Shown here piece by piece: positions 3,504-54,296 of a DNA stretch of 64,000 bases. The first letter of the stretch is position 1; each line of letters starts with the position of its first letter. A model generated the notes under the pieces. It saw only the letters and a program-made list of their open reading frames with translations, was not told where the DNA came from and ran no database searches. The translations under genes and the position numbers were made by a program. This DNA is from a virus. Lineage: Duplodnaviria > Caudoviricetes. The DNA lies in IMG/VR virus record IMGVR_UViG_3300028886_000066, positions 40,674-104,673 of that record; one strand, given 5' to 3'.

Positions 3504-3540
3504 TTAGGCAGTTCAACTACTATTTCATAGTCTCTGAGTT

Positions 3541-3774: not shown

Positions 3775-3786
3775 AATCTTTGCGTT

Positions 3787-4017: not shown

Positions 4018-4072
4018 AATCTTAATGTTTTGAAATGTATAGTAAGCCACGCCGAAACTAATCCGTGTGACT

Positions 4073-13946: not shown

Positions 13947-13985
13947 ATTCTTGAAATTTTTAGTGAATAAACCAATTTAACGCTG

Positions 13986-14237
13986 CAAAGTTACATAATA
14001 ATAAGGTACGATATTTCCCGAAGATAGACAAAAAGAATATAAAGTAACAACTAACAACCACAAAACAAAATAACAACAACAACAAAAAGAAAGTAAAGAA
14101 ATTTGATAACAAAATAAGAGTATTTGGGGTGGAGAAAGGAGGAGACAAAAGCCTTATTTTCAGGTATTTACGTCAATTTTCGAGGTGCAAAAGTAACATT
14201 ATATATAATAAAGTAATAAATCTTTTTTGCAAAAGTA
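13986..14237 (-). promoter_or_regulatory. three leftward Bacteroidetes -7 promoter elements
   Basis: Minus-strand TAACTTTG (13986-13993), TACTTTTG (14188-14195) and TACTTTTG (14230-14237). Confidence 0.6.
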
Positions 14238-14400
14238 GGGGGTAACCCCCCGATGCACAAAAGCCGCGGGCATACTGACCCCTTCTCGGAATTTTTTAAT
14301 TTTTCAAATTTCATTCCGTTAAGATTTTGACTTAACGTTTTTAACATTCTTAAAGTTTTGAAGAAAAGTTAGTGCATAATGTCGAAAAAATGGTGTAGTG

Positions 14401-14432
14401 TTTGGAGAATGGTTTAAAATGGGGTAATTTTG
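14401..14432 (+). promoter_or_regulatory. rightward Bacteroidetes promoter
   Basis: TTTG 14401-14404, 20-nt spacer, TAATTTTG 14425-14432. Confidence 0.7.
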
Positions 14433-14520
14433 CGGCAATAGTGTAGTATATGTAGGATAATACTTCATATATAGATGGATTTAAGTATTTGATAAATATA
14501 ATATTATAAGGGTTTACATA

Positions 14521-22138: not shown

Positions 22139-22192
22139 TGCTGTGAAGTTTAATTGTTAATATTTATCTGAACGTGTGGGCCTCACAGCAGT

Positions 22193-24913
22193 TCAGCTGA
22201 AAGAAAATGTTCTTATACTTTTCACATGTTTGCGGAGGAACTCGGGCACTTCCGTGTCGGACTCTTTGACATCGAATATCTCGAACATGCAGAGTGCTTC
22301 GATGAAGTCTGGAGAGTGACCGACAAGCGAACGTCTCTTCATGGTGTCTTTCGGTATGAGGCACCACCCTTTGTCCACCTTGCTCATGTCCTGTCTGATA
22401 GCCTTGCGCTCTCTTTGTAGGATGAACTGCAGGTCGTTGGTGGCTCGTCCAGACTTGAACTGCCTTTTGAGCAGTGTCGGTTCGATGCTCCATTCTCCCT
22501 GCTGTGTGTGTTGTGCGAACTTGTATGCGCACTGCGACTTCATGCAGTCGTAGAGGTTTCTGTCTTCTCGTGCCACCGCTTCCTGGTTGTTGAACGGCAC
22601 TGCATTAGGGAAAGCGCCCTTGAATATCTGCCCGATTCCTTGCAGGTCATACACGAAGTTCTGTTCAAGGACTCCCCATTCGCGCAGCTTAGCCTTTATC
22701 AACGGTACGGTATTGTATGGGTCTACACGGCAGACGTACAAGTCCTGTACGTGATTCCCGATTTTAAGCCATGTCACGCAGTTATCGCCTCCGTCACCAG
22801 CGACGTCGCACGATGCTCTGCGCACATGGTCACCCATCATGGCGGCATTACTAAAGCATTTCTCCAAGTGGTACGGCTGTATGAGGTCATCGCCGACGGC
22901 TATGGCATCCCAGTTACCTTCCCACTCCTTTGCGCGTTCCTCTGGCGATTTGTTCAGTATTGAGGCGATGTAGTTAGGGTCGTTCATCAGCAGTGCCTTG
23001 TTCTCCATTATGCTGGCCTTGATGAACACTGCTGATTTGACTGCAAAGGACATCTTGTCGTAACCGAAGTCCTGTAGTTTCGGGTCCCATGAAGCGTCAA
23101 TCTCCTCTTTTGCCTGCTCGTAGACCTCTTCGGGTGTGTTTCCCCATACTATGTTGTCCACGGAATCGCCTGTGATGAAGAAATAGCGTACCACACCGTT
23201 ACGCCAAGGTATAGGTAGTCCGTGACGTTCAGGGTGTTTCTCTCCATCGGGATAGACGGTATCCTTGTCGGCTATCCACCAGTCGACGAACTTCCTGAGC
23301 CAAGACAGCGGGTCTGGGTTACACGTTCCGAGGATGCGTGAGCGTATGCCCACCGTGTTACGGTTGCTGCCCATGAGTATCTTCACGAACTCAAAGGGGA
23401 TTTGCGGCAGCTCGTCTATCCCGATATACGGGTACTGCTGTCCTCTGTACTTGTCCTCGAACTCTTTCAGTGTCATGTCGAAATGGTCGAATGACATCTT
23501 CGCTCCAGTGTAGAAGTTCCATGTCATATCGTCTTTCGACTTGTTGTATCGCCCAAGGTTAGCGAACCATCGGCTGCTCTCGTTCTCGATGTTGACGAAA
23601 TCGTCCTTGTTCTTACGGAAGAGAACACTGTGAGAGTGTTTCTTCGTTATGTCGTATGCCCCCTCCATCAGCATGAGGGCAGTGTTGTGGTTTATGGTGT
23701 AGGCGTCAGTCAGGTACAGGTGTTCATTACCTGATATGGTGATACATCTGCATTTCTGCTTTGGCTTATCCTTCGACACCCACATGACTTTCTTTGTGAG
23801 ACATCCGTCAAGCTCTTTGATACTCTTCGGTATCGGTGCTATAATCTTCGCTCTGTTTCTTCGGCAAACGCTTTCCCAAAGCTTCTTTGCGTCAGGAGCC
23901 TTGATGGAGACGCGGTAGTAACCTATCTTATCCGGGTCGGTAGTGTTCTCAACGACCATGACAAAGCACCCTAACGAGCGTATCATCTGGGCCAGTTGCT
24001 CTGCCAGTCTCTTGTTGGGGAACTCTACGTAAGGGCACATGCTTTTTGAGTAGCCGTTACGGAATAAGACCCCCTTGACAAAGTTCAGCCTTGTCTCAAT
24101 GGATGCGTATTGATATTCGTGTGGTATGTAGGCCGGAGAACCATTTTTGGCAGCTGTGACAGCCATTCTTGCCTCATTTTTGATTCCGACCACGCGGTAA
24201 TTGCCGTTGATGTCTCTCTTGGAGAAGTATCCTTCACGATAGAATGGATAGCCATAGAACCTGTTCCGAATAGGTACTCCTCTTACGCTCAAGTCCCATG
24301 TACCCTTTCCAACGATATATCCGAGAAGGAGCGGATGTATCGGCATTATTCCGGGGACTTTGTATTCTTCATGTTCCACTTCTCCGCATAGAGGGAACTC
24401 GATGTAGTCGTATTGTCCGCGTTTGAGCGAGTATGGCGGTCTTTCGTCCATGCGGTAGATGTCGAAAATGTCTCTTGCCTCCCAAACCATGAAAGGCTCG
24501 TCTGGGTGTGAACGGGCGTAGAACCTGTGATTGTCCATGCACTTCACGGTCGTACCGTCATCGAAATGCAGAGTATAGATAGTCTGCTCACCATGTTCGA
24601 AGATTTCCGTAACTTCCTGAATACCTTCGTAGGGTGTGCATACAGGGTCTCCTACTTGCAGTTCCCCCATTTTTCTGAATCCCGTCGGTGTTGCCACCAT
24701 CGTACTGTAGGGATTCGCTTTCCCTCCACCTCGGTTTCCTCCGTAAATAATCAGGTCTGCATCGCTGTGAAGTCCGTCTTCCTGTGCACCCTTGTTTGGT
24801 ATGAAAACCTTTGAATACTTGTTGTTTCCCTCTTCCCGTCGCAGTTCCTCTACGAACTCTGAGGTGCGGATGGGTCTGCCATCCCGCATGTTAAGTCCAC
24901 TAAATTCTTGCAT
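22193..24913 (-). CDS. terL: terminase large subunit containing an intein
   Basis: YGGNRGGGK|T Walker A; IGIDE Walker B; TCNP; RNase H-like nuclease motifs SCDVA..D and SPDFIEA. Confidence 0.92.
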   Translation of the reverse strand: MQEFSGLNMRDGRPIRTSEFVEELRREEGNNKYSKVFIPNKGAQEDGLHSDADLIIYGGNRGGGKANPYSTMVATPTGFRKMGELQVGDPVCTPYEGIQEVTEIFEHGEQTIYTLHFDDGTTVKCMDNHRFYARSHPDEPFMVWEARDIFDIYRMDERPPYSLKRGQYDYIEFPLCGEVEHEEYKVPGIMPIHPLLLGYIVGKGTWDLSVRGVPIRNRFYGYPFYREGYFSKRDINGNYRVVGIKNEARMAVTAAKNGSPAYIPHEYQYASIETRLNFVKGVLFRNGYSKSMCPYVEFPNKRLAEQLAQMIRSLGCFVMVVENTTDPDKIGYYRVSIKAPDAKKLWESVCRRNRAKIIAPIPKSIKELDGCLTKKVMWVSKDKPKQKCRCITISGNEHLYLTDAYTINHNTALMLMEGAYDITKKHSHSVLFRKNKDDFVNIENESSRWFANLGRYNKSKDDMTWNFYTGAKMSFDHFDMTLKEFEDKYRGQQYPYIGIDELPQIPFEFVKILMGSNRNTVGIRSRILGTCNPDPLSWLRKFVDWWIADKDTVYPDGEKHPERHGLPIPWRNGVVRYFFITGDSVDNIVWGNTPEEVYEQAKEEIDASWDPKLQDFGYDKMSFAVKSAVFIKASIMENKALLMNDPNYIASILNKSPEERAKEWEGNWDAIAVGDDLIQPYHLEKCFSNAAMMGDHVRRASCDVAGDGGDNCVTWLKIGNHVQDLYVCRVDPYNTVPLIKAKLREWGVLEQNFVYDLQGIGQIFKGAFPNAVPFNNQEAVAREDRNLYDCMKSQCAYKFAQHTQQGEWSIEPTLLKRQFKSGRATNDLQFILQRERKAIRQDMSKVDKGWCLIPKDTMKRRSLVGHSPDFIEALCMFEIFDVKESDTEVPEFLRKHVKSIRTFSFS
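23684..24718 (-). mobile_element. 345-aa Ala1 (class 3-like) intein with degenerate LAGLIDADG domain
   Basis: Starts ANPYSTMVATPTG right after the P-loop Lys; ends CRCITI..HLYLTDAYTINHN followed by Thr. Confidence 0.88.
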
Positions 24914-24940
24914 AGTAACAATTCTTTTGTTTACATGTGA

Positions 24941-25040
24941 CAAAAGTATTGATAAATAGCTCTCTTGCAATGTGTTTTCAAATAATTCTTCATTTTTTTC
25001 TTTAAACATATTGTATGAAAACCTCAATTATATACATTTG
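24941..25040. promoter_or_regulatory. divergent promoters for the packaging and head operons
   Basis: Minus-strand TACTTTTG 24941-24948; plus-strand TACATTTG 25033-25040. Confidence 0.6.
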
Positions 25041-25100
25041 TAGCAGAAAATGGCACACGGAGTGCCGTTACCAACACAAAAACTAAACTTTTTAGGAATT

Positions 25101-25904
25101 ATGGAGAAAAATCTTCTCATTGAAAATTTGAAGACTAAGGCTGGAATCGACAACCTTAGCGACAGGACGTTAGACGAGGTGGCAACGGTCTTGCAGCCCA
25201 TGTTTGCCGATGACGAGAAAATTACCGACGAGAGTTGGAATCTTCCGATTCAGATGCTCAAATCGATGAGCGGCCAGCTTCGCCACGAAGTTGCCGATGG
25301 CATCAGCAAAGGCAAGGCGCAGTGGGAGAACGAGCAGAAGACGTCGCAGCAGAAGTCAATCGACGATGCCGTGGCTGCTTTCAAGGCTCAGTGGGAGAAA
25401 GACCATCCGTCCGACACGCCTCCCGCAGATGAAGGCAAGACTGACATTGCTGCACTTGTTGCAGAGCAGGTCAAGGCTCAGATGGCTGGGCTGACTGGCG
25501 AGAACAGCGAGTTTGCCAAGCTCAGTAAGCAGTTCAGCGACTACTTGAAGTTGCAGGCCGAGAAAGACAAGGCCGCAGCCGAGGCAGACGTCCGTTCGCA
25601 AATCAAGGATTTCCTTATCGGTCGCGGCGTGGAGGAAGATGACTACGCGCTTGAGATCATGCTGGAGAAGCTGGTTATCGGCGATAAGCCCGATGTGGTC
25701 GCTTTGAAGGCAAAGGCAGAGAAAGACTATGAGGCTATCTACAAGCGGATGCACAAGGGCGAAAATGCCCAGCCGTTCGCTGGTGGTGGCGGCAGTGCAA
25801 ATACTACAGTATATGGCTATGACGCTTGGGAAAAGAATCTTGATGCCATTGCTGCAGGTCAAGCCGCAGCCGCAGCCGAACTTGAAAAGCAGATATTCAA
25901 ATGA
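25101..25904 (+). CDS. probable capsid scaffolding protein
   Basis: Charged coiled-coil protein heading the head operon. Confidence 0.65.
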   Translation: MEKNLLIENLKTKAGIDNLSDRTLDEVATVLQPMFADDEKITDESWNLPIQMLKSMSGQLRHEVADGISKGKAQWENEQKTSQQKSIDDAVAAFKAQWEKDHPSDTPPADEGKTDIAALVAEQVKAQMAGLTGENSEFAKLSKQFSDYLKLQAEKDKAAAEADVRSQIKDFLIGRGVEEDDYALEIMLEKLVIGDKPDVVALKAKAEKDYEAIYKRMHKGENAQPFAGGGGSANTTVYGYDAWEKNLDAIAAGQAAAAAELEKQIFK

Positions 25905-25989
25905 GGAATTTATCTGACTGCTGAAGGACTGCAGTATGAAAGACGCGATTTAAAAATAAAAGTATTAACACACAAAAACAAAAAAGGAC

Positions 25990-26616
25990 ATGATTAAAGG
26001 TTATGACCAGACGGTAAAGGCCAGCGGCAAGATGGGCGGTGCGCTCGTCGTGTTCGAGGGTCATCCGTCACTGCTTGTCGGTGGTTTCGACTTTAATATG
26101 GCCGACCTTCCTGATGCAAAGGACGTGCTGCCCTGCGGCACTTACCTGAACTGCGACGATGTTACGCGCATCGCTACTCCCGTCATCACTGCGAAGGTAA
26201 AGGCTATTGACGGTACGAAGGTCACCGTTGAAGACCTTGGTTTCGGTAGTACTCCCTTCAAGGTCGGTGCTACTGTAGCCGAGTTGGGCGACAATCTTGC
26301 AAATGCCGCCACGTACTACGCAACCGTTTCCTCCAAGGAGGGCAACGTGCTTACTCTTAGTGGAGCCGTAACAGGTCTTGCCGTCGGTGACATCCTCGTT
26401 GAGGTTGACGCTACGGACAAGAAGGTGAAGGCTATACCCAATGCCATTCTGCCCTACGACAGATGGTATGATGCTGACGCCATCGCCGTCCGCTGTGACG
26501 GTATGTGGGCTAACGACCGTCCCATTTTGGAGCGTCGCATGCCCGCCTGCAATGATGCCATCAAGACGGCTCTCGTCAATGCTGGCTGTCAGTTCAAGTG
26601 GTCGAACCGTAAGTAA
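25990..26616 (+). CDS. head decoration / cement protein
   Basis: Beta-rich; lies between scaffold and capsid (lambda D-E arrangement). Confidence 0.65.
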   Translation: MIKGYDQTVKASGKMGGALVVFEGHPSLLVGGFDFNMADLPDAKDVLPCGTYLNCDDVTRIATPVITAKVKAIDGTKVTVEDLGFGSTPFKVGATVAELGDNLANAATYYATVSSKEGNVLTLSGAVTGLAVGDILVEVDATDKKVKAIPNAILPYDRWYDADAIAVRCDGMWANDRPILERRMPACNDAIKTALVNAGCQFKWSNRK

Positions 26617-26632
26617 AGAAAGGAGTTAGATT

Positions 26633-27832
26633 ATGGCAACTACAAGAGCAATATCAGCCTACAACGATTACGACTATCGTAAGTACATGGATAATGCCAC
26701 TTTCCGTAAGATCCTGGATAAGGCTAACGACAAATACAACAAGCCAGGACTCGGTTGGCGTATGCTTGGCGACTGGGACCAGCCCAGCGACAGTAAGATT
26801 TGGTCGCAGGGTCATCGTACCGTTCCCATCATGGCTCGCGCCTCGCTGCTCTCAGCCCACGGACTGAAGCCGATGCGTAACACCTCTGGTTGGAAGTTCT
26901 ACACTGGCTCGACACCGAAGTTCGGTCACGGCTATACCTTCGACGAGGATGACATGTTCCTGCTCCGCGACGTGCGTAACAATACTGGCCGCGACATGCA
27001 GGACTTGATTTACGACTCGCTGTTCGTAAACGCCCAGCAGATTATCGGCGGTATTCATAACGAGCTGTCTCACATGACCTTCGAGCTTGCCTCTACGGGC
27101 GGCATTAACGAGGCCAGTGTTGACGGTGTGAAGTATCAGTTCGCATTCGACTTTGAGGCTAACCAGTATCAGGAGGTTTCTCCCGCTTGGTTCACCGAGT
27201 CCGTTGACGGTACTATCACTGCCGAAGAGACAGGCGTGAACATCATCAAGGACATCCTCGACTTGCAGCGCATGCTCACCGTCAGCCAGAACCGTGACGT
27301 GAATGCTTGGCTTGTGAATATTGATACGCTGTATCAGATTCTCGACCATCCTTCGGTACTGAAGTCATACCTTGCCAACAAGGATATTCAGACAGGCAAC
27401 CAGGCTGCTTATATCGCAACGCGCACTGAACTGGTTCAGTTCCTCTACAACCGCGGTGTATGGCCTATCATCCCTGTTGACTTCAAGTCGGTACATGAGG
27501 AAGACGGTAAGCCTGTGGCCGATGCTCCCGCCTTTGACCCGCGCTACATGATTGCGTTCAACCGCAACGAGCGCATGTTCTCCATCAAGAACACCAATTC
27601 GATTTGGAAGGATCGTCAGGCATACGGCGGTATCTCTCAGAGCACTATATACTCGTTCATCGAGGGACGCATTGCCGCACTGAGCACTTGGTATGAGAAC
27701 CCGATTCACAACACCGTCGAGTTTGAGTTGTACGCAGGCCCCGTGTTCAATAATATGCGCAACTGGGCTCGCGTGAAGGTCATCGGTGTGGCGAGTTCTT
27801 CGAGTTCATCTGCAAGTTCTTCGAGCGAGTAA
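26633..27832 (+). CDS. major capsid protein (lambda gpE-like) with Ser-rich C-terminal tail
   Basis: Size, position and PKFGHGY...IHNELSHM..LASTG pattern; ends VASSSSSSASSSSE. Confidence 0.8.
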   Translation: MATTRAISAYNDYDYRKYMDNATFRKILDKANDKYNKPGLGWRMLGDWDQPSDSKIWSQGHRTVPIMARASLLSAHGLKPMRNTSGWKFYTGSTPKFGHGYTFDEDDMFLLRDVRNNTGRDMQDLIYDSLFVNAQQIIGGIHNELSHMTFELASTGGINEASVDGVKYQFAFDFEANQYQEVSPAWFTESVDGTITAEETGVNIIKDILDLQRMLTVSQNRDVNAWLVNIDTLYQILDHPSVLKSYLANKDIQTGNQAAYIATRTELVQFLYNRGVWPIIPVDFKSVHEEDGKPVADAPAFDPRYMIAFNRNERMFSIKNTNSIWKDRQAYGGISQSTIYSFIEGRIAALSTWYENPIHNTVEFELYAGPVFNNMRNWARVKVIGVASSSSSSASSSSE

Positions 27833-27851
27833 ACTCTAATCACTTGGAATC

Positions 27852-28256
27852 ATGGCTACATGCACTCACTCCAACGGTATGCTGACCATCAGGAAGTACT
27901 TAGGTGGCAAAGTCAGGAATATTAGGATTCCTGACGATGCCATTCTGTCGATATGTGCCGATGCAGGCGTAGACCCCGACACTCTATATGCTAAGGCGAC
28001 TCAGCGTCAGCGAGACCTGTCGCTTGCGTGGCTCTATGTATGGGTGGCAGGCAGTCCGACGCAGACGGGCGGTTGGACTGAGGAGAGTGCCGACTGGAGG
28101 AGTACTGACGGTGGTGAGCGTATGTCTGCTAGCGTACTCAAACAATACCTTGCTATGGCCAACAAAATCTTCGAGGAATACGACCTGCCTTGTGTGGGTG
28201 AGGAGTCTTGGGGATTTGTTGGCCGTGGCATCCGTAATCCGAGGAGATACTGCTGA
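27852..28256 (+). CDS. head-tail adaptor
   Basis: Position after capsid; size. Confidence 0.6.
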   Translation: MATCTHSNGMLTIRKYLGGKVRNIRIPDDAILSICADAGVDPDTLYAKATQRQRDLSLAWLYVWVAGSPTQTGGWTEESADWRSTDGGERMSASVLKQYLAMANKIFEEYDLPCVGEESWGFVGRGIRNPRRYC

Positions 28257-28603
28257 TGTTAGAGAGACCTGATAACCCGCGCTTCCCTCACAGCTGCCGC
28301 ATTACCCGTGCTGTAGATGAAGACCCGATGGTCGATGAGAGCGAAAGCAATCTCATCTATGAGGGAAAGTGTCGAGCCTACGAGAAGAACACCACTTCGG
28401 ACAAGGGAGACGTCCTGAACTCCTTCAGGGGTCTGGCTTTGCCTATAGACAGGGAGGGATGGATTCGGTATGGTAAGGTTCCACGCGAGGGCGATGAGGT
28501 TGTTGTTGATAGAGGTGGTTACACGGAACGCGGACGTGTGGTTGACGTCAATCCCGCGAATTTCGGAGGAACACATTTGATTTGGAAATATGGCAGGCAC
28601 TAA
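28256..28603 (+). CDS. head closure / stopper protein
   Basis: Position; beta-rich, 115 aa. Confidence 0.6.
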   Translation: MLERPDNPRFPHSCRITRAVDEDPMVDESESNLIYEGKCRAYEKNTTSDKGDVLNSFRGLALPIDREGWIRYGKVPREGDEVVVDRGGYTERGRVVDVNPANFGGTHLIWKYGRH

Positions 28604-29195
28604 TAAGACAATCGTAGAGAAGGCTTTCAGGGATTTTGAGAAGCGTATGGATCAGCAGGTATTCGGTCAACTCGACAAATACTGCAGGGACATCCTTCGC
28701 AAGGCCGTGTGGGAGCGTCAGCATTTCACTGGCGGTCACAACTTCACGGGAAACCTTGTCAACTCGATTGTTGTCTGCATGTTCCGCAAGTCAACGGGCA
28801 AGAAGTACAAGTACTTTGCCTATGACACCATCAAGCTTCCGATACGGCGTGAGCTGTCGGCATTGACATCCCGTGGCAAACGAAGGAAAAACAGGATTAT
28901 ATTCCACCCAGGCAGCAGGTATGGAAGTCAGGACTGGTCGGGAGAGTGGTCAACGCTCAAGCCCGATAATCTCATTCCTACGGATGAGAGCTGGGGTCAG
29001 AACGATGCGGTTCAGTTCGCGAGTATCTGGTATCCGACAAATACAAACATCGACTTTACGATTTGCGTGGCCTATGCTTCAGAGTATGCGTCCTTCGTCG
29101 AACACGAACGCCACACGACAGGTTACATTAATACGCTTGACTATGCCGAGCGTATGGCTGTTGAGTATTACGGATTGAAACCCGCAACAAGATAA
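28590..29195 (+). CDS. HK97 gp10-like neck / tail completion protein
   Basis: TGNLVNSI and YASFVE motifs. Confidence 0.7.
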   Translation: MAGTNKTIVEKAFRDFEKRMDQQVFGQLDKYCRDILRKAVWERQHFTGGHNFTGNLVNSIVVCMFRKSTGKKYKYFAYDTIKLPIRRELSALTSRGKRRKNRIIFHPGSRYGSQDWSGEWSTLKPDNLIPTDESWGQNDAVQFASIWYPTNTNIDFTICVAYASEYASFVEHERHTTGYINTLDYAERMAVEYYGLKPATR

Positions 29196-29199
29196 GGTA

Positions 29200-29613
29200 A
29201 TGGCAGAGAAGACAACCATAGCAAAGATGTACGATGACCTCGTCAACGCCTTGGATGGCATTGTCGAGCGCAAGTTTATCTTCACAGGGGGCAGGCCAGA
29301 CATCAAGGATGCCGACTTGGAGACGATGCCGAAGTATATCGTCGTTGAACTCCCAGTCGCTATTGATGATATGGTGTTTGGAAATCACAAGTTCCACCTG
29401 ACTACCACTGGAGTCTTCTACCTTATCTCGAAGTCAAAGAAAAACAGGACGTTCAACGTCAATACTCTTTCCGACTTCATTGAGGAGGTGACGGACTTGT
29501 TCCCCATCAGCGGGACTCACTTCGCAGCCGTAAATCCTGTCGTGCTGATGCGTGGTATGGATGAGTTTGGGTATCAGCTGGTAACAATCACATTTGATTT
29601 ACATTCTAAATAA
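29200..29613 (+). CDS. tail terminator protein
   Basis: Position before the tail tube gene; size. Confidence 0.6.
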   Translation: MAEKTTIAKMYDDLVNALDGIVERKFIFTGGRPDIKDADLETMPKYIVVELPVAIDDMVFGNHKFHLTTTGVFYLISKSKKNRTFNVNTLSDFIEEVTDLFPISGTHFAAVNPVVLMRGMDEFGYQLVTITFDLHSK

Positions 29614-29640
29614 TTTAATAACTATAAAAACAGTACGATT

Positions 29641-30207
29641 ATGGCAAATATTTTAGCAAGCGAAACCAATAAATTTGTTGGTATCAGCGCACTAAAGGTT
29701 GTGAAAGGCGGTTTTGCTGCCGGGTTCACACTAGGCGGAAATAGCCTCGTAGAGGTTCCTGTTGCTGAGGACGGTGGCTTCACCTATACTGGTGGCGAGC
29801 CTTCCATCGAGCACTACAAGATTCACGGTCTGTCTGCCGACTGGACGAGCCGCACGACTCCGGGCGAGACGCAGATTAACCTCTTCATTCCGAGTATCAC
29901 CAGCACTCTGCTGACCTTGTTCGGATTCTCTGTGACTACCGCAGACTCTGCAAGCGGAATCTCTGCCAATGCAAGCGGTTTTACGTTCCAGGAGAGCGCA
30001 CTGGCCGTTACTCTCGGTATCGTTGCCTTCAACGACGAGGGTACCAAGGCGTTCGCCATCAAAGCAGCCAAGCTCTCGGCTACCATCGTATTCGACGAGG
30101 CCAACAGTGCAAAGCCTATCGGCATTAGTCTGACAGGTTTTACCTCTGCTGGTGAGGACGCCGATGCTATGGGTATCTTCGAGATCAGCGGTTCTTCGAG
30201 CGAATAA
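29641..30207 (+). CDS. major tail tube protein ending in SGSSSE
   Basis: Beta-rich 188 aa in the canonical position, followed by a terminator. Confidence 0.75.
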   Translation: MANILASETNKFVGISALKVVKGGFAAGFTLGGNSLVEVPVAEDGGFTYTGGEPSIEHYKIHGLSADWTSRTTPGETQINLFIPSITSTLLTLFGFSVTTADSASGISANASGFTFQESALAVTLGIVAFNDEGTKAFAIKAAKLSATIVFDEANSAKPIGISLTGFTSAGEDADAMGIFEISGSSSE

Positions 30208-30228
30208 CTCAATCCATTCTAAACGATG

Positions 30229-30268
30229 AGCGGTGGCGGTGAGGTTATAGTCACCGTTGCCGCTTTTT
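30229..30268 (+). terminator. rho-independent terminator
   Basis: AGCGGTGGCGGTGA/TCACCGTTGCCGCT stem followed by a T run. Confidence 0.8.
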
Positions 30269-30298
30269 GTTTGGGAAGGATTTTTAATTTTGTGAGGA

Positions 30299-32539
30299 AT
30301 GGATATTGACTACGTTGTCCCTATGGTTTTCGATGATGATGAGCAGTGGCGAAAAGATTATGTCACGGCGCATCATGTGCTGCGTTATGGCGGCGGTAAT
30401 GTGAGGTATCGGTCGTGGGGAAATGAGGAACTTTTGATTAGGTGTATCAGAAAATTCATGCCCTTCGTGCGTACCATATATATTATATTGGCGCGGGAGA
30501 GTCAGAAGAAGGCGTGGATGGATGGTGAACATTTCGGAGAAGCGAAAGGCACGGTGAGGGTTGTTTATCATCGTGAGTTTGTGCCTGAGAAGTATTTGCC
30601 TTGTTTCAATAGCTGTACGTTGGAGATGTTCGTACCGTTTATTGAGGGGTTGTCGGAACACTTCATTTATGGGAATGATGATATGTTCCCCGTGTCTCCG
30701 TTGAAAGAGACGGACTTTTTCGTCAATGGATTGCCCGTGCAGCATCTTAGTGAGAAGGCTTTCCCTGATAATCCGAGCATATTCCATAAGAAATGCAAGA
30801 ACCAGCAGAAGATGATTGCCTCTTCTCTGGGCATAGAGATTGGTGACACCCACTTACATAACGGGCATAATCTCGCACCTATGCTCAGGAGTTCATGTCT
30901 GGAGGTAAGGGAGATATTTGATAAGGAAATAACTGACGGTATAACTCCGTACCGTTCAGAGACGAGTTATAACCAATATCTTTATGTGTTGTGGCAGCAT
31001 TTTACGGGAAGATATGTTGACGGCAGGGCGAAGAGTACCTACGTTTCGGTAAAAGAACCAGTCTCGCGTATCAGAGAGGTTATATGTAAATCAAAAGGGG
31101 TTGTTTGTGTGAATGACAATGAGCGTGCTGGCGACATAAGTGAACACGCCGCGCTTGTAAGAAGAATCCTTAACGAGAAATTGATGAGTAAGAAAGAATC
31201 TGATTATAGAATATGGGTCACGTACCACCGTGACGAGTTGGTATCTCAGTATGGCTTATTGGATGATGACCACCATAAGTTGTTTGCCAGCCACAAAGAT
31301 ATTGAAGGTAAGAACATCAATCATCTGAATCCTGTATATTCAGAGATGGTGACGATGTGGTATGTGTGGAAGAATAATATCAAGAGTGAATATATTGGCT
31401 TTGAACATTACCGACGCCACTTGAATATCCGCAGGATGCCGCGAAAAGGCGAATGTCAGGTGTTCAGGGCGATCAACTTCGGCAAACAGACGATTTACGA
31501 GCAGTATGCAAAATGTCACAATGTGAAGGATATTGACGTGATGCTTGGCATACTTGGGGGAAGGTTTGGTAAGTCTAATCCGTATGCAAGACATATCACA
31601 GAAGACAGTGTTCTGATTGCCAACTGCACGTTCCTGATGAAATGGACTGATTTCAAGAAGTTGTGCGAGTTCATGTTTCCACTGTTGGAAGATTTCGCTG
31701 TTTTGTCAGGAATCAGGAACAACTCTTTAGAGGAATGGAATAATAAAGCTCAAAAGGATTTTGGTAATAATAGGACGGCATACCAGATGCGCGTAGTGTC
31801 TTTTTTGGCCGAGCGACTTATTTCCGCGTGGATAAATACGCATATGAAGTGGTGGAATGGTATTGATGTCGCTATCGTTCACTACAACACCCCTGAACTG
31901 ACAGATGCGGCCATACGCTCTTTGAATAAGTTTACGCCGGGATGTCGGGTGACTATCTTTGACAATAGCAACGAAAAACCTTTTGTCAACAGCTACAAGA
32001 ATGTCTCTGTCATCGACAATACAAAAGGGCAGATAATCGACTTCGAAGAAATACTGAGCCATTATCCTGACAAGGAACTTAGCGAAAGAAACAAGAGTGA
32101 TTTTGGTAGTGCCAAACACTGCAAAAGTGTTGACATATTGATGGACTACATACCTGACGGTTTTCTACTGATGGATTCTGACGTTCTTGTCACGAATGAT
32201 GTTCGTAAGTTAGTACGTTATGACGTAGCCGTGTCAGGCATGGAGCATACGAAGGACGGCGTTACGCTGTTTCAGCCTTTTCTCTGTTGGATTAATGTGC
32301 CGATGCTCCGTGTGAATGACATTCGCTATTTTAACGGCGACAAGATGTGGGCTTTGAGCCGTATATTCCCGAATAACAGATATGACACAGGTGCGTGGTT
32401 GTTTGAGGAAGTACGGAACAAGAACCTTGAATGGCTTGCGGTCGATATTTGGCGGTTTATCATTCACTTCGGTCATGGTAGCTGGCGAGATAAGAACGGC
32501 AGGGCATGGTTAGAGGAACACAAGGATTTGTATGAGTAA
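30299..32539 (+). CDS. three-domain glycosylation enzyme: Stealth phosphotransferase + DUF4422-type GT + GT2/GT-A domain
   Basis: Stealth CR1 DIDYVVPMV, CR2 LPCFNS..LSEHFIYGNDDMF..DFF, CR4 CVND; DUF4422 LNPVYSEM..WKN..YIGFEHYRR and FLAERL; GT-A VAIVHYN..IFDNS..LMDSD. Confidence 0.85.
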   Translation: MDIDYVVPMVFDDDEQWRKDYVTAHHVLRYGGGNVRYRSWGNEELLIRCIRKFMPFVRTIYIILARESQKKAWMDGEHFGEAKGTVRVVYHREFVPEKYLPCFNSCTLEMFVPFIEGLSEHFIYGNDDMFPVSPLKETDFFVNGLPVQHLSEKAFPDNPSIFHKKCKNQQKMIASSLGIEIGDTHLHNGHNLAPMLRSSCLEVREIFDKEITDGITPYRSETSYNQYLYVLWQHFTGRYVDGRAKSTYVSVKEPVSRIREVICKSKGVVCVNDNERAGDISEHAALVRRILNEKLMSKKESDYRIWVTYHRDELVSQYGLLDDDHHKLFASHKDIEGKNINHLNPVYSEMVTMWYVWKNNIKSEYIGFEHYRRHLNIRRMPRKGECQVFRAINFGKQTIYEQYAKCHNVKDIDVMLGILGGRFGKSNPYARHITEDSVLIANCTFLMKWTDFKKLCEFMFPLLEDFAVLSGIRNNSLEEWNNKAQKDFGNNRTAYQMRVVSFLAERLISAWINTHMKWWNGIDVAIVHYNTPELTDAAIRSLNKFTPGCRVTIFDNSNEKPFVNSYKNVSVIDNTKGQIIDFEEILSHYPDKELSERNKSDFGSAKHCKSVDILMDYIPDGFLLMDSDVLVTNDVRKLVRYDVAVSGMEHTKDGVTLFQPFLCWINVPMLRVNDIRYFNGDKMWALSRIFPNNRYDTGAWLFEEVRNKNLEWLAVDIWRFIIHFGHGSWRDKNGRAWLEEHKDLYE

Positions 32540-32559
32540 CAAAAAAAAAGTTGGATAGA

Positions 32560-33099
32560 ATGGAAAAAGAACCTAAGATTGAGCAGCCGTCCATTGAAGC
32601 ACAGAGGACGTATGCCAGCATGAGAGACAATGACGCGACTATTGTTCCCGTGTTAGGAACAAAGAAGAAATACAAGATTCGTTGGCTGAAGAAGGGGCAG
32701 ATAAACAAATTGTCCCGACTTCTGATACGTAAGTCCGGAACAGATGAAAAAGACGGTGCAAACGACTCACCTCTTGATGCTATTCGTGAGGATTCAAAGC
32801 TAACGTGCAAGGCCGCAGCTATTTATATCCTTGACGGCTATTGGAAACTGAAGTTCCGCTACTGGTTCCTGTGGCGGTGGTTCTACTATATTAGGCAGTA
32901 CGATGACGTACAACTTCAGGCTATACTTACGGAGGGTCAAAAAAAAACTCCGCTCACGCCGTTCTTGATAGCTACCATGTTACTGACAGAGGCAAGGGTT
33001 TCGCTAATGAATATGAGGACGGAAGAAGCCGAGCGTATCCTTCTCGCACAGCCTTCGGCGCAGCAGCAGGAGACGGAAAAGCCCGCCAATGGCTCCTGA
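32560..33099 (+). CDS. tail assembly chaperone (gpG-like)
   Basis: Position in the tail region; A9 slippery run at 32939-32947. Confidence 0.6.
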   Translation: MEKEPKIEQPSIEAQRTYASMRDNDATIVPVLGTKKKYKIRWLKKGQINKLSRLLIRKSGTDEKDGANDSPLDAIREDSKLTCKAAAIYILDGYWKLKFRYWFLWRWFYYIRQYDDVQLQAILTEGQKKTPLTPFLIATMLLTEARVSLMNMRTEEAERILLAQPSAQQQETEKPANGS

Positions 33100-33825: not shown

Positions 33826-33887
33826 CCATTGTCAAAGCGCGATGACAAAGAAATAATAGTATTAACCTAAAAATGCAGTATTTCGAT

Positions 33888-34820
33888 ATGGCAGAAATTT
33901 ATAGTGTACCCGACAATTCGGGATCTACTCCACAGTTTACAATCCCTATCGGTGGACTTGGTAATGGTGGTATGTTCGGCAATGGCTTTAACTCCATCGC
34001 TGATTTGTTCGGACTGGCAATCATAGCCTCAATGTTCGGTTGGGGTAACGGTAACGGCTTCGGCGGTGGCTGGGGCGGTGGCAATGGTGCTGCTGGTTTC
34101 CTTAGTAACCAACTCAATAACGATTCAGGTCGTGAGCTTATCATGCAGGCAGTGACCAATCAGGGCGAGGCTTCACGTACAGCGATTCAGTCACTTGCGA
34201 CCGCATTAGGGCAGGATTTCACCCTTGTCAATCAAGGCGTACAGACCGTACAGAATGCACTCAGCAACCTTGCCTTGCAGCAGGCCGTGAGCGTACCTCA
34301 GATTATCAACTCCATACAGAGTGGTGATGCAAGTCTTGCAAGTGCCTTCCAGAAGTGTTGCTGCGACCAACAGCTCGCTACTTGTCAGCAGACAAATACA
34401 TTACAGAATGCTATCAACGGTGTAGGCAACCAAGTACAAGCAAAGGCTGCTGCCGACCAGTTGGCTATATGTCAGCAGACTTACGCTCTGACTGACAACA
34501 TGAATCGCAACTTCCTTGCTATTGACAACAAGCTTGATGCTATGGAGTCAAATCGCAAAGACCGCGAGATTACCGCTTTGACGGCAGAAGTCGCATCGTT
34601 GAAGTCTCAGAACTTCACCACAGGTGTTGTTCAGCAGGCTGTTGCTCCTATTCTTGGTCAGCTTGCTGGCATCCAGAATCAGGTTGATGACATCAAGAAC
34701 AAGATGCCAAATACCATCGCAGTAACATATCCAAATGTTACCGCCGTAAACAACACTCCATATATGGGTGGTTGGAATGGTTTTTATGGTAACGGGTTCG
34801 GCAACCAGATTGTGTTTTAA
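33888..34820 (+). CDS. Gly-rich hydrophobic / coiled-coil protein with CCC motif, uncharacterised
   Basis: Hydrophobic segment flanked by GNG repeats; Q/N-rich heptads; KCCCD. Confidence 0.85.
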   Translation: MAEIYSVPDNSGSTPQFTIPIGGLGNGGMFGNGFNSIADLFGLAIIASMFGWGNGNGFGGGWGGGNGAAGFLSNQLNNDSGRELIMQAVTNQGEASRTAIQSLATALGQDFTLVNQGVQTVQNALSNLALQQAVSVPQIINSIQSGDASLASAFQKCCCDQQLATCQQTNTLQNAINGVGNQVQAKAAADQLAICQQTYALTDNMNRNFLAIDNKLDAMESNRKDREITALTAEVASLKSQNFTTGVVQQAVAPILGQLAGIQNQVDDIKNKMPNTIAVTYPNVTAVNNTPYMGGWNGFYGNGFGNQIVF

Positions 34821-47050: not shown

Positions 47051-50000
47051 ATGAGCAAGAAGGTAGACATAAAGCGTGGCAGTACGGTTGTTGCCGTCGG
47101 CGAGGGGCTGGAGTACCACGGCGAGTGGATGCAGCACGGGTATGTGACGGTGACGGTGAAGTCGGCGGTGAAGATTGACTTCCAAGTCGGCGACTACGTG
47201 GAGTACCGTGGTGAGCGGTTCTACCTGTGGAGCGACGAGAACTTGAAGAAGCAGGCGCGGAGCGGCAGTCACGGTGAGGCGTTCGTGTATGAGAACCTGA
47301 AGCTGATGGACGCTACGGCGGCACTGGAGCAGGTGTCGATGCACGACTTCGTGCTGGGCGGCTCTGGGAATGCGGAGTCGTATTCGTCGCTGGGACGGTT
47401 TTCGTTCTTCGGCGGGTCGGTGGATGACCTCGCGGACAGGATTCAGGCGAACTTACTGAGGCAGGTGCCTGCTATCGGCGGGACGGAGTTTGCGTTTCGG
47501 GTGTTTACGCCGAGCCTTTCGAGGACGTTGCAGCGACTTGGCGGCGGTGACGATAGTAGCGACGGTGGTGATAGTAGCGATGCTGACGCATCGGACACGG
47601 TGACTGATGACTGGGAGGCGTATTATGACGGGGATGAGGCAACGGGGAAAAGCGATGTGACGGTTGGCATCAGCGATGAGACGCTGTGGGGTGCGCTGGC
47701 ACGTTGCTATAATGACTTTGAGCTGCCGTTCTATGTTCATGGTACGGATATTGTCATCGGCGGCAAGGCGGTGGAGGTCGGGCAGATGTTTGCGTATGGC
47801 AAGGGTAACGGCTTGAAGGATATTGAGCGGATGGCCGACCAGGAGCAGCGGATAGTGACGCGGCTGTTTGCGTATGGAAGTACGGAGAACATGCCGCTGA
47901 ACTACTACGGAAACGTGTTCAAGACGGCCTACGTGACGGGCACTGCGGACATTTACAACAGTAGCTACTACTTCCTGAAAACGGGCATCCTGTTCGAGGC
48001 GGTGAAGGACGCGCTGGGATGGAGCGCTGAGGCATGGCGGCAGGTCGTGATGATAGGCAACTACGCAAAGGTGCCCATTACGGTCAGCATATCGACGGCC
48101 TTAGACCCCAACAACGGTTATAGCGACAGCGGGGCGTATATATGCGCCTATGAAGAGAGCGAGCACACCTACCTTGCGCTGCTGACGACGCAGGCGGTGA
48201 CGAGCCATGTAACGGCACAGACGAAGGTGTATATATTGGAGGGAGCTGACTTGAACAAATGGCCTTCATCGCTGACAGAGACGGCGGCGGGTTATGCTGC
48301 CGGTATGGCGATACAGAATCTGATGTTGCCCGGATTCCCGACGCAGACGCTTGCGGACTGGGTTTCGCATCGGCATGAGTATATGGCTGACGATGGGAAG
48401 AAAAATGCTTGGCTGGCGCGGAAGGTGAACTATGATTTTTCCGAAGATGCGAAGAATCCTTGGATTCAGTCGAAGGCTGGCGTGGCGAAGTACGGCGTGA
48501 GAGAAGGGGAGGTTTACTTTGACGGTTCGAACGACCGCGACGAGATTAAACCGACGATTGAGAACACGTCGTATGGGTACGCGAAGGGCGTTACTGGTAT
48601 CAGCGATAACGGATGGGTGACGGAAGGCGGTAACTTCAAGCTGGCGGTGTATGATGACCAGACGAAGTTCTGGGACGCTGTTTTCAAGACGCGCACGGGT
48701 GACAAGATGCCGATAACGATGACATCGGGCTATCACAACGGACGGGAGTTCGAGGTGAGCAAGGTGACGTATAACGAGGGGAGTGATTTTGCGGTGCTTG
48801 AGATTGCGCGTGTGAAGGACGAGCGTGAGCGTTTTGTGCCGAACACCGAGGAATTGATTGCCTTGGACGATACGTTTATCGCGACGGGGATTCAGTTGCC
48901 CGACACCTATATAGCCGAGGCTTCGGAGGTGCTGTTTGATGCGGCACTGGATGCGCTGGACGAGGCTGACCATGCTACCTATACGCACACGCCACACATC
49001 GATGAGATTTTCATGGCGAGGGAGCGGGATGAAGCGGCGGCTAACGAAACGGTGAGCCTGCATGACACGATAAGGCCGGGTATGGTACTGGAGTGGCAGG
49101 ACGTGGAGCTTGGCAACGTTAGTTCGGTAATTGACTCGCTGACGATTAAGGACGACGGCAATAACGGCATCCCGACGTATGAGGTAGTGCTGAGGAACGA
49201 GAAGGAGAAGACCTTGGCGCAGATGATTGGCGCGGAGATTAAGAAGAGCAGTAGCGGCGGCAGTGGACGTGGGGAGAAGCCCACGGCACCGTCAGCGGCG
49301 AGCATTATTGAGGCGGCAAGCGGTGCGTTCCTGAGCAAGACGGAAGATGATACGGCGCAGGGGACTATCACGTTTGCTGCGGGTGTGGCTTTCGGGGACG
49401 GGAGTACTGGCATAGACGATAACGGCGACGCCACCTTGCATGACGTGACGGCAAGCGGCGACCTTGAAGTTACGGGGGATGCGGAAGTCGGGGGCGACCT
49501 TGATGTGACAGGCACGACCAACGGAACTGACGCGATATTCGAGAATTTGACGGTGACGAAGGCGGCGCACTTCTTCAAGCTGATTATCGACGAGGTGAAG
49601 GCGACGCAGGGACAGGTGATTATCACGGCGGCGAACGCGAAGCTGGATAAGGTGGTGGAAGTGACTGGCGGTTGGAAGTGCTACTTCCGTTCTTCGGACG
49701 CTGACGGTAACGAGATAAGCAACACCTTTGCCGCGAATGACCTTGTGCTGTGTCAGACGTTTAACGCGAAGAAAGGCGTAAGCGAACAAGTTGACAACAG
49801 ATTCTACTGGCGCAAGTGTACGGCTGTTGGCTCTGAATCCCAAACTGTAGACGGGCAGGCGGTTGATTACCATTATATTGTCCTTTCTTCGTCGGTCGAG
49901 GATAGTAATTCTAACGCAGACCCGCAGGCAGGCGACGAAGTGGTACAGCTTGGAAATGACACGGACACCACCCGTCGAGCTGCTATCATCATTTCTGCAT

Positions 50001-53192: not shown

Positions 53193-54296
53193 ATGGGATG
53201 CGAAAGGTATAATAACTACGGTCACGGCGAACTACTGAGCTGGGTAGAGGGAAACGACGTTTTCCTGAAGGCGAGGGTGTATGAGAAGGTGGTGACGGAG
53301 CAGGATTCCTCTTCTTCGGAGGGGGATGAACCTGCGGGAAATGCCGCAGGAACGGTTGAAGAGCGGGCGGTGGACTTGACGGCGTTCGATGACGTTGAGG
53401 TGGAACTGGTGAAGTCATTTGGAACACGGACGGACATCGAGACGGCGATTGACCAGACGGAAGATAACTGCCTTGTGGTGCACTGTCCGCATACGTTGGA
53501 GAGCGGCGAGTATGCGCTGGAGATTCGGCTGATGAAGGACGGACTGCAAGCGCGTTCGTTCGACGTTCAGTTCACCGTGGTTCAGACGGACTGTAAGGCA
53601 CAGACGACGTTCGAGGTGATTGACGGGTGTCGGTCGGCTTCGCTGAGGGTGACGTTACAGGTCGTCAGCCAGGCATTGGTACGCGGCAAGTCGGCGTATG
53701 AGCTTTGGAAGGAGCTGCCGGGGAATGAGGACAAGGGATTGCAGGATTTCATCGACGAGGTGCTGGACTTGAATACGATTGCAACAAGGGCGGCGACTGC
53801 TGCCGAGACGGCTGAGCAGGCGGCAGTCAACGCGAACGAGAAGGCAGCACTTGCTAACGAGAAAGCGGGGCTGGCGAATGAGAAGGCGGCTTTGGCTGAC
53901 GAGAAGGCTGGACTTGCCGAAGAAAAGGCAGGGCTGGCGAATGAGAAAGCCGCATTGGCAGCAGAGAAAGCAGGCTTGGCAAACGAGAAAGCCGGGTTGG
54001 CGGCATCGGCTGCGGTGCTGGCCAACGAGAAGGCAGCACTTGCGAATGAAAAAGCGGGGCTGGCTGAACAGAAGGCTACAGAGGCTGGGAACGTGAACGC
54101 TTCGCTATCAGGAACGATACTGACGGTGACGAACAAATACGGAGAGTCGGAGAGCGTCGACGTGAAAGACCAGATGATGCTCTTTGAGGTGGATGACGAT
54201 ATGCAGCTATCGGTGACGAAGGCTGACGACTCGACGGTGGTGTTCGGACTGGAGAACGGCTACCTGACGGTGGACGATACAGACAACGGTAATTAA
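53193..54296 (+). CDS. upper-baseplate / fibre adaptor-like protein with A(G/A)LANEK heptad repeats
   Basis: GKSAYELW motif; 21-nt tandem repeats at about 53830-54080; internal DSSSSE. Confidence 0.7.
   Translation: MGCERYNNYGHGELLSWVEGNDVFLKARVYEKVVTEQDSSSSEGDEPAGNAAGTVEERAVDLTAFDDVEVELVKSFGTRTDIETAIDQTEDNCLVVHCPHTLESGEYALEIRLMKDGLQARSFDVQFTVVQTDCKAQTTFEVIDGCRSASLRVTLQVVSQALVRGKSAYELWKELPGNEDKGLQDFIDEVLDLNTIATRAATAAETAEQAAVNANEKAALANEKAGLANEKAALADEKAGLAEEKAGLANEKAALAAEKAGLANEKAGLAASAAVLANEKAALANEKAGLAEQKATEAGNVNASLSGTILTVTNKYGESESVDVKDQMMLFEVDDDMQLSVTKADDSTVVFGLENGYLTVDDTDNGN

Follow-up and report, generated by a model that had tools for sequence, protein, structure and literature searches.

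The locus considered here lies within a window of 64,000 nucleotides, the whole stretch of DNA that was analyzed, from the 104,673-bp genome of an uncultured phage of rumen or gut type; all features described below are on the plus strand. The major capsid protein (MCP) gene (26633..27832, 399 aa), identified by a match to the major head protein family phrog_29 (2.6e-09), is preceded by portal, terminase, scaffold-like, and decoration-like genes. Its translation ends ...VKVIGVASSSSSSASSSSE*, and the C-terminal serine tail ASSSSSSASSSSE (27791..27829) contains ten serines encoded by a mixture of TCN and AGY codons, with two 14-nt near-repeats GC[G/A]AGTTCTTCGAG. The tail tube (major tail) protein gene (29641..30207, 188 aa) encodes a protein ending ...FEISGSSSE*, with the tail SGSSSE at 30187..30204. 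Among approximately 137 ORFs of the whole genome, only these two encode C-terminal serine tails, and in the window the motif GTTCTTCGAGCGA[G/A]TAA occurs solely at 27816-27832 and 30191-30207, at least two matches being found in 0 of 100 shuffled sequences. This restriction to two ORFs and the recurrence of the tails in relatives, described below, are more than chance would give.

All four sequence statements of the first-pass annotation, which include the two tails and two internal serine motifs, are correct for the window. The internal motifs are DSSSSE (53304..53321, in the EQDSSSSEGDE segment of a 367-aa protein) and DDSSDGGDSSD (GGGDDSSDGGDSSD, about 47549..47581, in a 2045-aa tail protein). 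Both are present as candidate sites, but their role as further tags is not borne out, the frequency of internal SSS runs in the ORFs of the whole genome being at chance level (approximately 13 seen versus approximately 8 expected at 6.4% serine). No homolog of the 367-aa protein was found in the records of five relatives.

The tail tube gene was assigned by its predicted fold and its position in the tail operon; profile searches with the 188-aa protein gave no family match. Its AF2 (AlphaFold) model (pLDDT 80.7), in which residues 186-188 are disordered (pLDDT below 50), was compared by VIA-align with siphophage major tail proteins, including those of JBD30 (Z 10.4, rmsd 4.7, 165 residues aligned), Chi (9.6), Bxb1 (9.5), and YSD1 (9.2); the best 50 entries are all tube or Hcp-like proteins, and the Z scores to siphophage tube proteins are 10.4-8.0. 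The gene is preceded by connector-type genes and followed by chaperone-like genes and then by genes for giant tail proteins. The label "tail tube", given at first on sequence grounds, is consistent with the predicted tube beta-sandwich fold, with Z up to 10.4, despite the missing family match.

The tube gene is followed by a terminator-like hairpin with a T-run (30228..30275; a 15-bp stem, then TTTGTTTGGG), which is also retained in L031, a relative without the downstream enzyme gene. The enzyme gene itself (30299-32539) has, 6 nt before its ATG, the box TAATTTTG (30285..30292), a candidate Bacteroidetes-type -7 promoter motif, TAnnTTTG. The 746-aa product consists of three domains. The first (residues 1 to approximately 295, 30299..31180) is a predicted Stealth hexose-1-phosphate transferase, in which Stealth_CR2 (PF11380) was found at residues 36-143 with 88.7 bits against the Pfam cut-off of 39.4 (E = 3.6e-25), and residues 2-273, covering the full domain, align to CpsY of M. 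tuberculosis (8j2n, 5.8e-17). The conserved CR1 (IDVVYTF-like) and CR4 (tetrapeptide C[LI]ND) motifs of the family (PMC10668966) are represented by IDYVVPMVF at residues 3-11 and by CVND at residues 270-273, opposite CLND of CpsY. Residues E109, N126, D128, and R219 align to E305, N322, D324, and R419 of CpsY, the catalytic or binding residues validated by mutation (PMC10668966), and these four are invariant in ten phage homologs with 38-72% identity. In the same homologs, the CR1 segment, the N126-D127-D128 triplet, and CVND are invariant or nearly so, with C270 invariant and N272 and D273 at least 90% conserved.

The second domain (residues 329-514, 31283..31843) belongs to the DUF4422/GT111-like family (PF14393, 2.3e-23; 83.7 bits versus the cut-off of 25) and matches WbbM's N-terminal domain (6u4b, chain residues 66-114, E = 1.6e-08). 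The fold of GT111 is that of a UDP-Galf transferase (PMC12269835); as no UDP-galactopyranose mutase, Glf, was found in the phage genome, such a donor would need to be supplied by the host. The third domain (residues 518-746, 31850..32539) has a GT-A Rossmann-like fold in its AF2 model (pLDDT 93.8), with 134 PDB matches by structure at E <= 0.001 and leading Foldseek neighbors that include LARGE1 (8e-07), LgtC (6e-06), WbbM (2.7e-05), GlyE (5.6e-05), and SpsA; glycogenin is also a neighbor. Its DxD motif, D626-x-D628 (D109-x-D111 in domain numbering), does not vary among 21 homologs. Since the Pfam Glyco_transf_8 score is below threshold (E = 0.095, 12.7 bits versus the cut-off of 24.3) and a profile search gave no PDB match, this domain is called GT8-like by fold only. 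It has 441 homologs, found in modular fusions and mostly on phage-size contigs.

The enzyme is a soluble Stealth domain fused to a WbbM-like pair of GT111 and GT8-like domains. It contains no hydrophobic segment (maximum KD19 1.23) and no membrane segment or export signal, and with its invariant catalytic residues it looks active and cytoplasmic. It is not simply a glycosyltransferase, as the first-pass annotation had it: the part that stays constant is the Stealth domain, a predicted sugar-1-phosphate transferase, and this alters the likely chemistry. A search of the phage collection with the 8-kb region returned no near match.

The capsid and tube tags are similar in DNA, with a 13-nt exact match, extended to 16 of 17 nt with the stop codon, that is unique in the window, and it had been proposed that one was copied from the other. 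According to this explanation, a single DNA segment would have passed between the two genes through gene conversion or illegitimate recombination; the three identical serine codons (probability approximately 0.005 per alignment, given SSS) and an 11-nt match of the same kind within the L013 genome agree with it. However, such identity is no commoner within than between genomes, the MCP-tube tag matches averaging 7.1 nt and 6.2 nt, respectively (permutation p = 0.15). The tube tag of the window is nearly as close to the MCP tags of other phages (12 nt in L012, and 10 nt), and that of L041 matches the MCP tag of L022 over 15 nt, which indicates that 10-15 nt is usual for low-complexity tails ending in AGC GAG TAA. 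The similarity beyond the stop codons, considered as a sign of copying, was rejected, since the two stretches involved, CTCTAA behind the stop codon of the MCP gene and CCATTCTAA behind that of the tube gene, belong to the intergenic sequence of the respective gene and are conserved in tagless orthologs. Copying is thus not supported, and we regard it as distinctly improbable.

The closest relative, L031, is 93.3% identical to the window in DNA over positions 20475-30241 (9.8 kb), with the alignment resuming at 32545. The enzyme gene is missing from it as a clean 2.3-kb indel, and neither tail is present: the MCP ends LYSHYGE in L031 and in its shorter counterpart L002 versus VIGVASSSSSSASSSSE in the window, the MCPs being 92% identical, and the tube protein ends FEIGS in L031 versus FEISGSSSE. 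Between the MCP tail and the enzyme gene lie 2.4 kb of DNA with four conserved genes. The four genes between MCP and tube retain 85-98% protein identity in L002; both tails differ by local replacement and not by a block swap.

A total of 55 MCP homologs were collected, and the survey covered 29 distinct homologs of known state; in 16 of them the tube gene is followed by a Stealth gene, and in 13 it is not. The tube tail is present in 12 of the 16 and in 1 of the 13 (Fisher p = 5e-4), the MCP tail in 10/16 and 1/13, respectively (p = 0.006), so that the co-occurrence with gene 30299-32539, raised as a check by the first-pass annotation, is indeed seen across relatives. In the records of two Stealth-negative relatives, 74% and 91% complete, no Stealth gene was found anywhere, the control with the phage's own genome being positive. 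The exceptions are L005 and L030, which have the enzyme and no MCP tail, L051, with a short MCP tail ESGSSSN, and L092, with a tube protein ending LASAS, the last two having no Stealth in the DNA examined. On the MCP tree, the combined tail and enzyme state requires at least three and up to five changes, and the linker that carries the MCP tag is of two kinds, VKV[IF]G.A-Sn-E and VKMYDPTP.-Sn-E, suggesting repeated acquisition. Judged from these sequence comparisons, the tails and the enzyme are gained and lost together.

The Stealth-domain search revealed further phage lineages, including those with lambda-E-type capsids, phages of 72-132 kb, and other gene orders, in which proteins of approximately 400 aa and 190 aa end in SSSSE, SSSGE, or SSSD. 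At least one tail-bearing gene was found in 24 of 31 Stealth-positive loci, and tail-bearing genes account for 36/558 genes there versus 3/262 in Stealth-negative loci (p = 4e-4). In phages with Stealth alone, namely L011 and L012 (both tails) and L029 and L030 (tube tail AASSSSSE), no GT111, GT92, GT2, or GT8-like domain was found in the available records; the completeness of these is 21-59%, which leaves room for further transferases beyond them. By this comparison, the domain whose presence follows the tails most closely is Stealth. It does not require them, since in the clade L077-L081 the tube gene is followed by a Stealth-only gene and neither the MCP nor the tube protein has a serine tail.

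One explanation of these data is that the tails are unmodified hydrophilic or acidic spacers, or sites of some other modification, and that the enzyme is a moron acting elsewhere, for example on the host surface polysaccharide, the co-occurrence then stemming from common descent and from linkage within one mosaic block. The gene indeed lies, like a moron, behind a terminator and with its own promoter-like box; Stealth exists without tails; phage glycosyltransferases commonly alter the host O-antigen; and in a test on phylogenetically independent pairs, the tube tail changed in the same way as the enzyme in three to four of five usable contrasts and in the opposite way in one (sign test p ~0.38, not significant). 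However, the distant MCP tail changes with the enzyme in the 93%-identical pair by local replacement, the pairing recurs with unrelated capsid types and in different gene orders, the tails are confined to the two most abundant surface proteins, and the enzyme lacks the membrane segment or export signal expected for action on envelope polymers. We consider this explanation very improbable.

Because the tails mostly co-occur with a predicted sugar-phosphate transferase gene beside the tube gene, the phage probably coats its particle with sugar, through a chemistry that phages have not yet been shown to use. Specifically, we infer that the soluble three-domain enzyme encoded by the phage modifies the serine tails of the MCP and tube, so that head and tail acquire a glycan coat, and we assign this reading a probability of roughly two-thirds. 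The modification would occur in the host cytoplasm during virion assembly. The Stealth domain would move hexose- or HexNAc-1-phosphate from a UDP-sugar onto serine hydroxyls, producing Ser-O-phospho-sugar (phosphoglycosylation), and the WbbM-like pair would then extend it, possibly as a repeating disaccharide. The presumed benefit is that the coat shields the particle or lets it adhere within the rumen or gut. Host enzymes may also be involved in tail modification.

The order of these steps could differ: the tails may be acceptor tags primed by ordinary serine O-glycosylation by the GT8-like domain, GT111, or a host enzyme, with Stealth only adding sugar-phosphate branches or poly(sugar-phosphate) to the glycan. 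For the GT8-like domain there are parallels in glycogenin and in GT8 enzymes of serine-rich-repeat adhesins, whose targets are proteins or the glycans on them. Characterized Stealth enzymes indeed act on glycan acceptors, CpsY on glucan (PMC10668966) and GNPTAB on mannose. The GT8-like domain is the constant module in its 441 modular homologs, and among its structural neighbors are glycogenin and GlyE from the pneumococcal serine-rich-repeat protein pathway. The tube protein ending LASAS in L092 is accompanied by GT92 and GT8-like domains, with no Stealth in the region examined, and the clade L077-L081 combines Stealth with tail-free proteins. On the other hand, strong tails occur with Stealth alone in the records examined of L011/L012 and L029/L030, MCP tails are absent from L063/L092 and L093, whose examined DNA encodes a GT8-like domain but no Stealth, and a clear poly-serine tail was found in no Stealth-negative relative. 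We therefore regard such priming as unlikely and prefer direct phosphoglycosylation by Stealth. That phages of Bacteroidales-type hosts and other lineages perform protein serine phosphoglycosylation, with fused polymerase-like modules extending the glycan, is a more tentative suggestion, to which we give somewhat less than even odds.

We know of no Stealth protein with a protein serine as acceptor, and, to our knowledge, experiments have demonstrated glycosylated virions for a few mycobacteriophages only, in which the modification weakens recognition by antibodies. If the pairing of tag and enzyme is functional, a glycan coat would be a common feature of the large siphophages that infect rumen and gut Bacteroidales. 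A phosphodiester-linked sugar on serine would be new chemistry for viruses of bacteria, the first bacterial-virus case of a serine phosphoglycosylation known only from protists, and the enzyme would be the first of the Stealth family to use a protein as acceptor. A C-terminal tag of 4-6 residues and one soluble enzyme would also form a portable pair for cytoplasmic glyco-engineering. Such findings would matter for how phages persist in mucus, digesta, and immune environments, as well as for the design of phage therapy and for protein engineering.

The closest known parallel is the glycosylation of mycobacteriophage virions, whose sites are reportedly C-terminal. As described in PMC11600133 and PMC11256854, which cite Freeman et al. 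2023 (Cell Host Microbe 31:1216), glycosyltransferases of mycobacteriophages (Che8, Rita, cluster O) modify capsid and tail tube proteins, so that the analogy drawn in the first-pass annotation is apt. In both cases soluble sugar transferases of the phage are paired with capsid and tube proteins, here with candidate acceptor regions; in mycobacteriophages the result is a glycan shield on the virion, as is proposed here. The mycobacteriophage enzymes, in the same sources, are tandem glycosyltransferases with an O-methyltransferase, and the hosts are Actinobacteria; this phage has Stealth, GT111, and GT8-like domains, an enzyme gene inside the tail operon, a linkage that is likely via phosphate, and Bacteroidales-type rumen or gut bacteria as hosts.

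The Stealth family includes the meningococcal capsule polymerases CsaB and CsxA. Compared with CpsY (8j2n) and GNPTAB (7s05/7s6n), the phage enzyme keeps the CR1-CR4 motifs and the four validated residues, but it is a minimal soluble domain of 290-300 aa, fused to two GT domains or alone after the tube gene, and its proposed acceptor is a protein serine tail instead of a glycan. The order of DUF4422/GT111 followed by the GT8-like domain is the same as in WbbM of Klebsiella pneumoniae O2a (6u4b), a galactan polymerase with GT111 UDP-Galf and GT8 UDP-Galp transferase domains (PMC12269835), the likeness being by sequence match for the N-terminal domain and by fold match for the structure. In contrast to WbbM, the phage enzyme has an extra N-terminal Stealth domain and a GT8 Pfam score below threshold, and the phage is without UDP-galactopyranose mutase.

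Serine-rich-repeat adhesins of Gram-positive bacteria, with GtfA/GtfB priming and GT8-type extension (for instance, GlyE, 5gvv), likewise have a serine-rich disordered acceptor, cytoplasmic soluble enzymes, and extenders of the GT8 fold, a combination proposed here. A domain search of the phage enzyme revealed no GT-B primer of the GtfA/B type, and the acceptor here is a C-terminal tag of 4-14 residues on virion proteins, compared with a repeat region of several hundred residues in the adhesins. Finally, protists attach sugar-1-phosphate to serine in serine-rich tracts, as in Ser-O-P-Man on Leishmania proteophosphoglycans. In Dictyostelium, serine-linked GlcNAc-1-phosphate (Ser-O-P-GlcNAc) is found in proteinase I, according to work cited in 10.1101/2025.09.30.679562. 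That modification belongs to the eukaryotic secretory pathway, unlike the phage system, for which we infer a like chemistry from the enzyme family alone.

By the CheckV estimate, the 104,673-bp genome record is complete, and the window takes up its right-hand 64 kb. The late region starts with an SPP1-type portal and includes the large terminase (22193-25027, minus strand, 944 aa), scaffold-like and decoration-like genes between the terminase and major capsid protein (MCP) genes, the MCP gene itself (26633-27832, phrog_29), four small connector-type genes, a gene for a 188-aa protein (29641-30207), the gene of a 746-aa enzyme (30299-32539), and downstream of it two chaperone-like genes followed by giant tail proteins. 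No family match was found for the 188-aa protein; its AlphaFold model (pLDDT 80.7) matches, among the matches listed, tail tube proteins only, the best being the siphophage major tail proteins of JBD30 (Z 10.4), Chi (9.6), Bxb1 (9.5), and YSD1 (9.2), which bears out the tail tube label of the first-pass annotation. In the phage collection, megablast with 25000-33000 gave no match; none of the MCP, tube protein, and enzyme had an NCBIfam hit, and a PDB profile search with the MCP yielded nothing useful. The Terminase_6N match of the large terminase begins only at residue 449, and TerL has 542 aa in the related phage L061 and 912-920 aa in others, which suggests that a large segment has been inserted or lies at the N terminus, perhaps as an intein. 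Located 3' of the chaperone-like genes, 33873-34820 encodes a protein of 315 aa, rich in Gly, Asn, and Gln, that has a Cys cluster and carries GNG repeats at either terminus; no family match was found for it.

The MCP ends in VASSSSSSASSSSE and the tube protein in SGSSSE, and these tails, read directly in the sequence, are as initially described. Among the 137 ORFs of a rough genome-wide gene prediction (6.4% Ser), only these two proteins have a C-terminal Ser tail, and the 17-mer GTTCTTCGAGCGA[G/A]TAA occurs at these two sites only. The internal motifs DSSSSE and DDSSDGGDSSD, proposed as extra modification sites, are both present, but internal SSS runs in the whole-genome ORFs are near the chance level (approximately 13 observed versus roughly 8 expected), and this role is not supported. 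No homolog of the 367-aa protein that carries DSSSSE turned up in the records of five relatives, in a search that had no positive control. The chaperone-like gene 32551-33099 has homologs in L047 (5330-5896), L051 (13675-14265), L070 (10878-11408), and L074 (7131-7664); C-terminal tails rich in Ser, Thr, and Gly are found in this family in Stealth-positive and Stealth-negative phages alike, for instance, SESSSS and SSSSSSSD in L070 and L074, respectively.

The closest comparison is provided by the relative L031, whose DNA is 93.3% identical to the window over 20475-30241 and from 32545 onwards. In L031, the enzyme gene is missing through a clean indel of 2.3 kb, located behind a terminator hairpin that is conserved, and the MCP and tube protein end in LYSHYGE and FEIGS, respectively. 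Since these three local differences lie 2.4 kb apart in near-identical DNA, hitch-hiking is hard to invoke. In the window, the interval 30228-30298 contains the terminator hairpin and then a TAATTTTG box 6 nt before the enzyme ATG; with the clean indel, the terminator, and a box of its own, the gene is moron-like in its behaviour. The scan of genome contigs identified one MCP homolog only, on a contig of an uncultured Porphyromonadaceae MAG, at a Stealth-negative, tagless locus. This contig is a weak host hint; together with the TAATTTTG box, it points to a Bacteroidales-type host. Most relatives presumably come from rumen metagenomes, judging by their IMG sample numbers.

Viral, metagenome, and genome collections supplied MCP homologs, for which the C-termini of the MCP and tube protein and the segment separating the tube gene from the chaperone genes were scored, giving 29 distinct MCP rows of known state, 16 with and 13 without a gene of the Stealth (hexose-1-phosphate transferase) family. 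A tube Ser tail is present in 12/16 of the former versus 1/13 of the latter (Fisher p = 5e-4), the sole exception being the borderline LASAS of L092; an MCP poly-Ser tail, in 10/16 versus 1/13 (p = 0.006), the exception being the short ESGSSSN of L051. In two Stealth-negative relatives (records 74% and 91% complete), the Stealth gene was found nowhere by a search that succeeds in the window's own genome. On the MCP tree, the state of tail plus enzyme requires at least three and up to five changes, and the MCP tags are attached via two different linkers. The predicted co-variation of the tails with 30299-32539 stands as a count, but in the strict phylogenetic sense it is not established, since the underpowered independent-pairs test has only five usable contrasts (for the tube tail, three to four concordant and one discordant; p ~0.38). 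Further, in the clade of L077-L081 and L085, the tube gene is followed by a Stealth-only gene (e.g., L079 7425-8324) and neither the MCP nor the tube protein has a Ser tail; in L005 and L030, the enzyme is accompanied by a tube tail but by no MCP tail.

Other lineages with the same pairing were reached by Stealth-domain search and by walking from homologs of the enzyme's third domain. These include phages with lambda-E-type capsids, for example L061, where the MCP ends in SASSSSEAPTSSSSGE and the tube protein in ASSSSSGE. At least one Ser-tailed gene is found in 24 of the 31 Stealth-positive loci, and such genes number 36/558 in Stealth-positive versus 3/262 in Stealth-negative loci. In phages of 72-132 kb, the Stealth fusion gene comes after a protein of 2445-3316 aa, and the Ser-tailed protein has 420-448 aa (L072 18860-20206, L075 16459-17733, L076 17758-19020, and L086 15853-17145); in L072 and L075 it carries a C-terminal Flg_new_2/InlB B-repeat domain and then an acidic Ser tail. 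The distant Stealth-positive phage L062 encodes a SAM synthetase, a PNP/MTA-nucleosidase-like protein, and LuxS beside its head genes (1528-4347), a methyl-cycle/AI-2 set in a phage.

The first-pass annotation held that the tag had been copied between the MCP and tube genes and took the similarity past the stop codons as a sign of it; comparison supports neither claim. The CTCTAA that immediately follows the MCP stop (27833-27841) and the CCATTCTAA a short way beyond the tube stop (30208-30224) are each kept, with and without tags, at the orthologous sites of L004-L047, hence the likeness past the stop reflects two orthologous intergenic motifs with TCTAA coincidentally in common. Both may be a signal common to late genes. 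In the eight genomes carrying both tags, the longest DNA word common to the MCP and tube tags averages 7.1 nt within and 6.2 nt between genomes (permutation p = 0.15), and matches across different genomes reach 12-15 nt. By this comparison, the tag was probably not copied between the two genes. Slippage, which would generate a homopolymer, is ruled out as the tail origin by the mixed TCN/AGY Ser codons, and selection therefore acts on the protein rather than on a slippery repeat.

The enzyme is, by sequence and structure prediction, a fusion in which a WbbM-like pair of GT111 and GT8-like domains follows a Stealth domain. Residues 1 to approximately 295 form a complete Stealth domain (CR2 3.6e-25), which aligns full-length to CpsY of M. 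tuberculosis (5.8e-17). Across ten phage homologs with identities as low as 38%, the CR1 motif IDYVVPMVF, the CR4 motif CVND, and the residues that correspond to CpsY E305, N322, D324, and R419 are invariant or nearly so. Residues 329-514 are DUF4422, with the GT111 fold as in the UDP-Galf transferase domain of WbbM, a protein that polymerises a Galf-Galp disaccharide (PMC12269835). Residues 518-746 had no match in Pfam-type, PDB profile, or NCBIfam searches; their model (pLDDT 93.8) is a GT-A domain nearest to the GT8 enzymes LARGE1, LgtC, WbbM, and GlyE, and its DxD is invariant. The 441 homologs of this third domain have shuffled architectures: it follows Stealth and GT111, GT111 with Stealth as a separate gene, GT92, or Stealth and GT92. 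No hydrophobic segment was found in the enzyme, ruling out signal or membrane targeting, and no UDP-galactopyranose mutase in the phage genome; thus the enzyme should be active in the cytoplasm and draw on nucleotide sugars of the host.

Strong tails also occur with Stealth alone, on both proteins in L011/L012, where the Stealth-only enzyme of L012 is encoded at 13882-14754, and as tube AASSSSSE in L029/L030; no GT111, GT92, GT2, or GT8-like domain was found in these records, which are 21-59% complete. Phages with GT92 and GT8-like domains and no Stealth in the DNA examined have no MCP tail and, on the tube, only LASAS. This distribution favours Stealth as the domain that would recognise the tag, and with it a Ser-O-phospho-sugar linkage. 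The preference is not a wide one, because of the tagless Stealth-only clade and because, to our knowledge, the known Stealth acceptors are glycans. We put the probability that the Ser tails are acceptor tags at roughly two in three; their phosphoglycosylation is plausible, though we advance it tentatively. In our literature search, no paper connected Stealth enzymes with phage particles, and none of relevance dealt with Stealth phosphoglycosylation or with glycosylated capsids of Bacteroid phages. The system predicted here from sequence comparison would be alike in its working to the virion glycosylation of mycobacteriophages, but the enzyme families and the host phylum differ, and so, probably, does the linkage.
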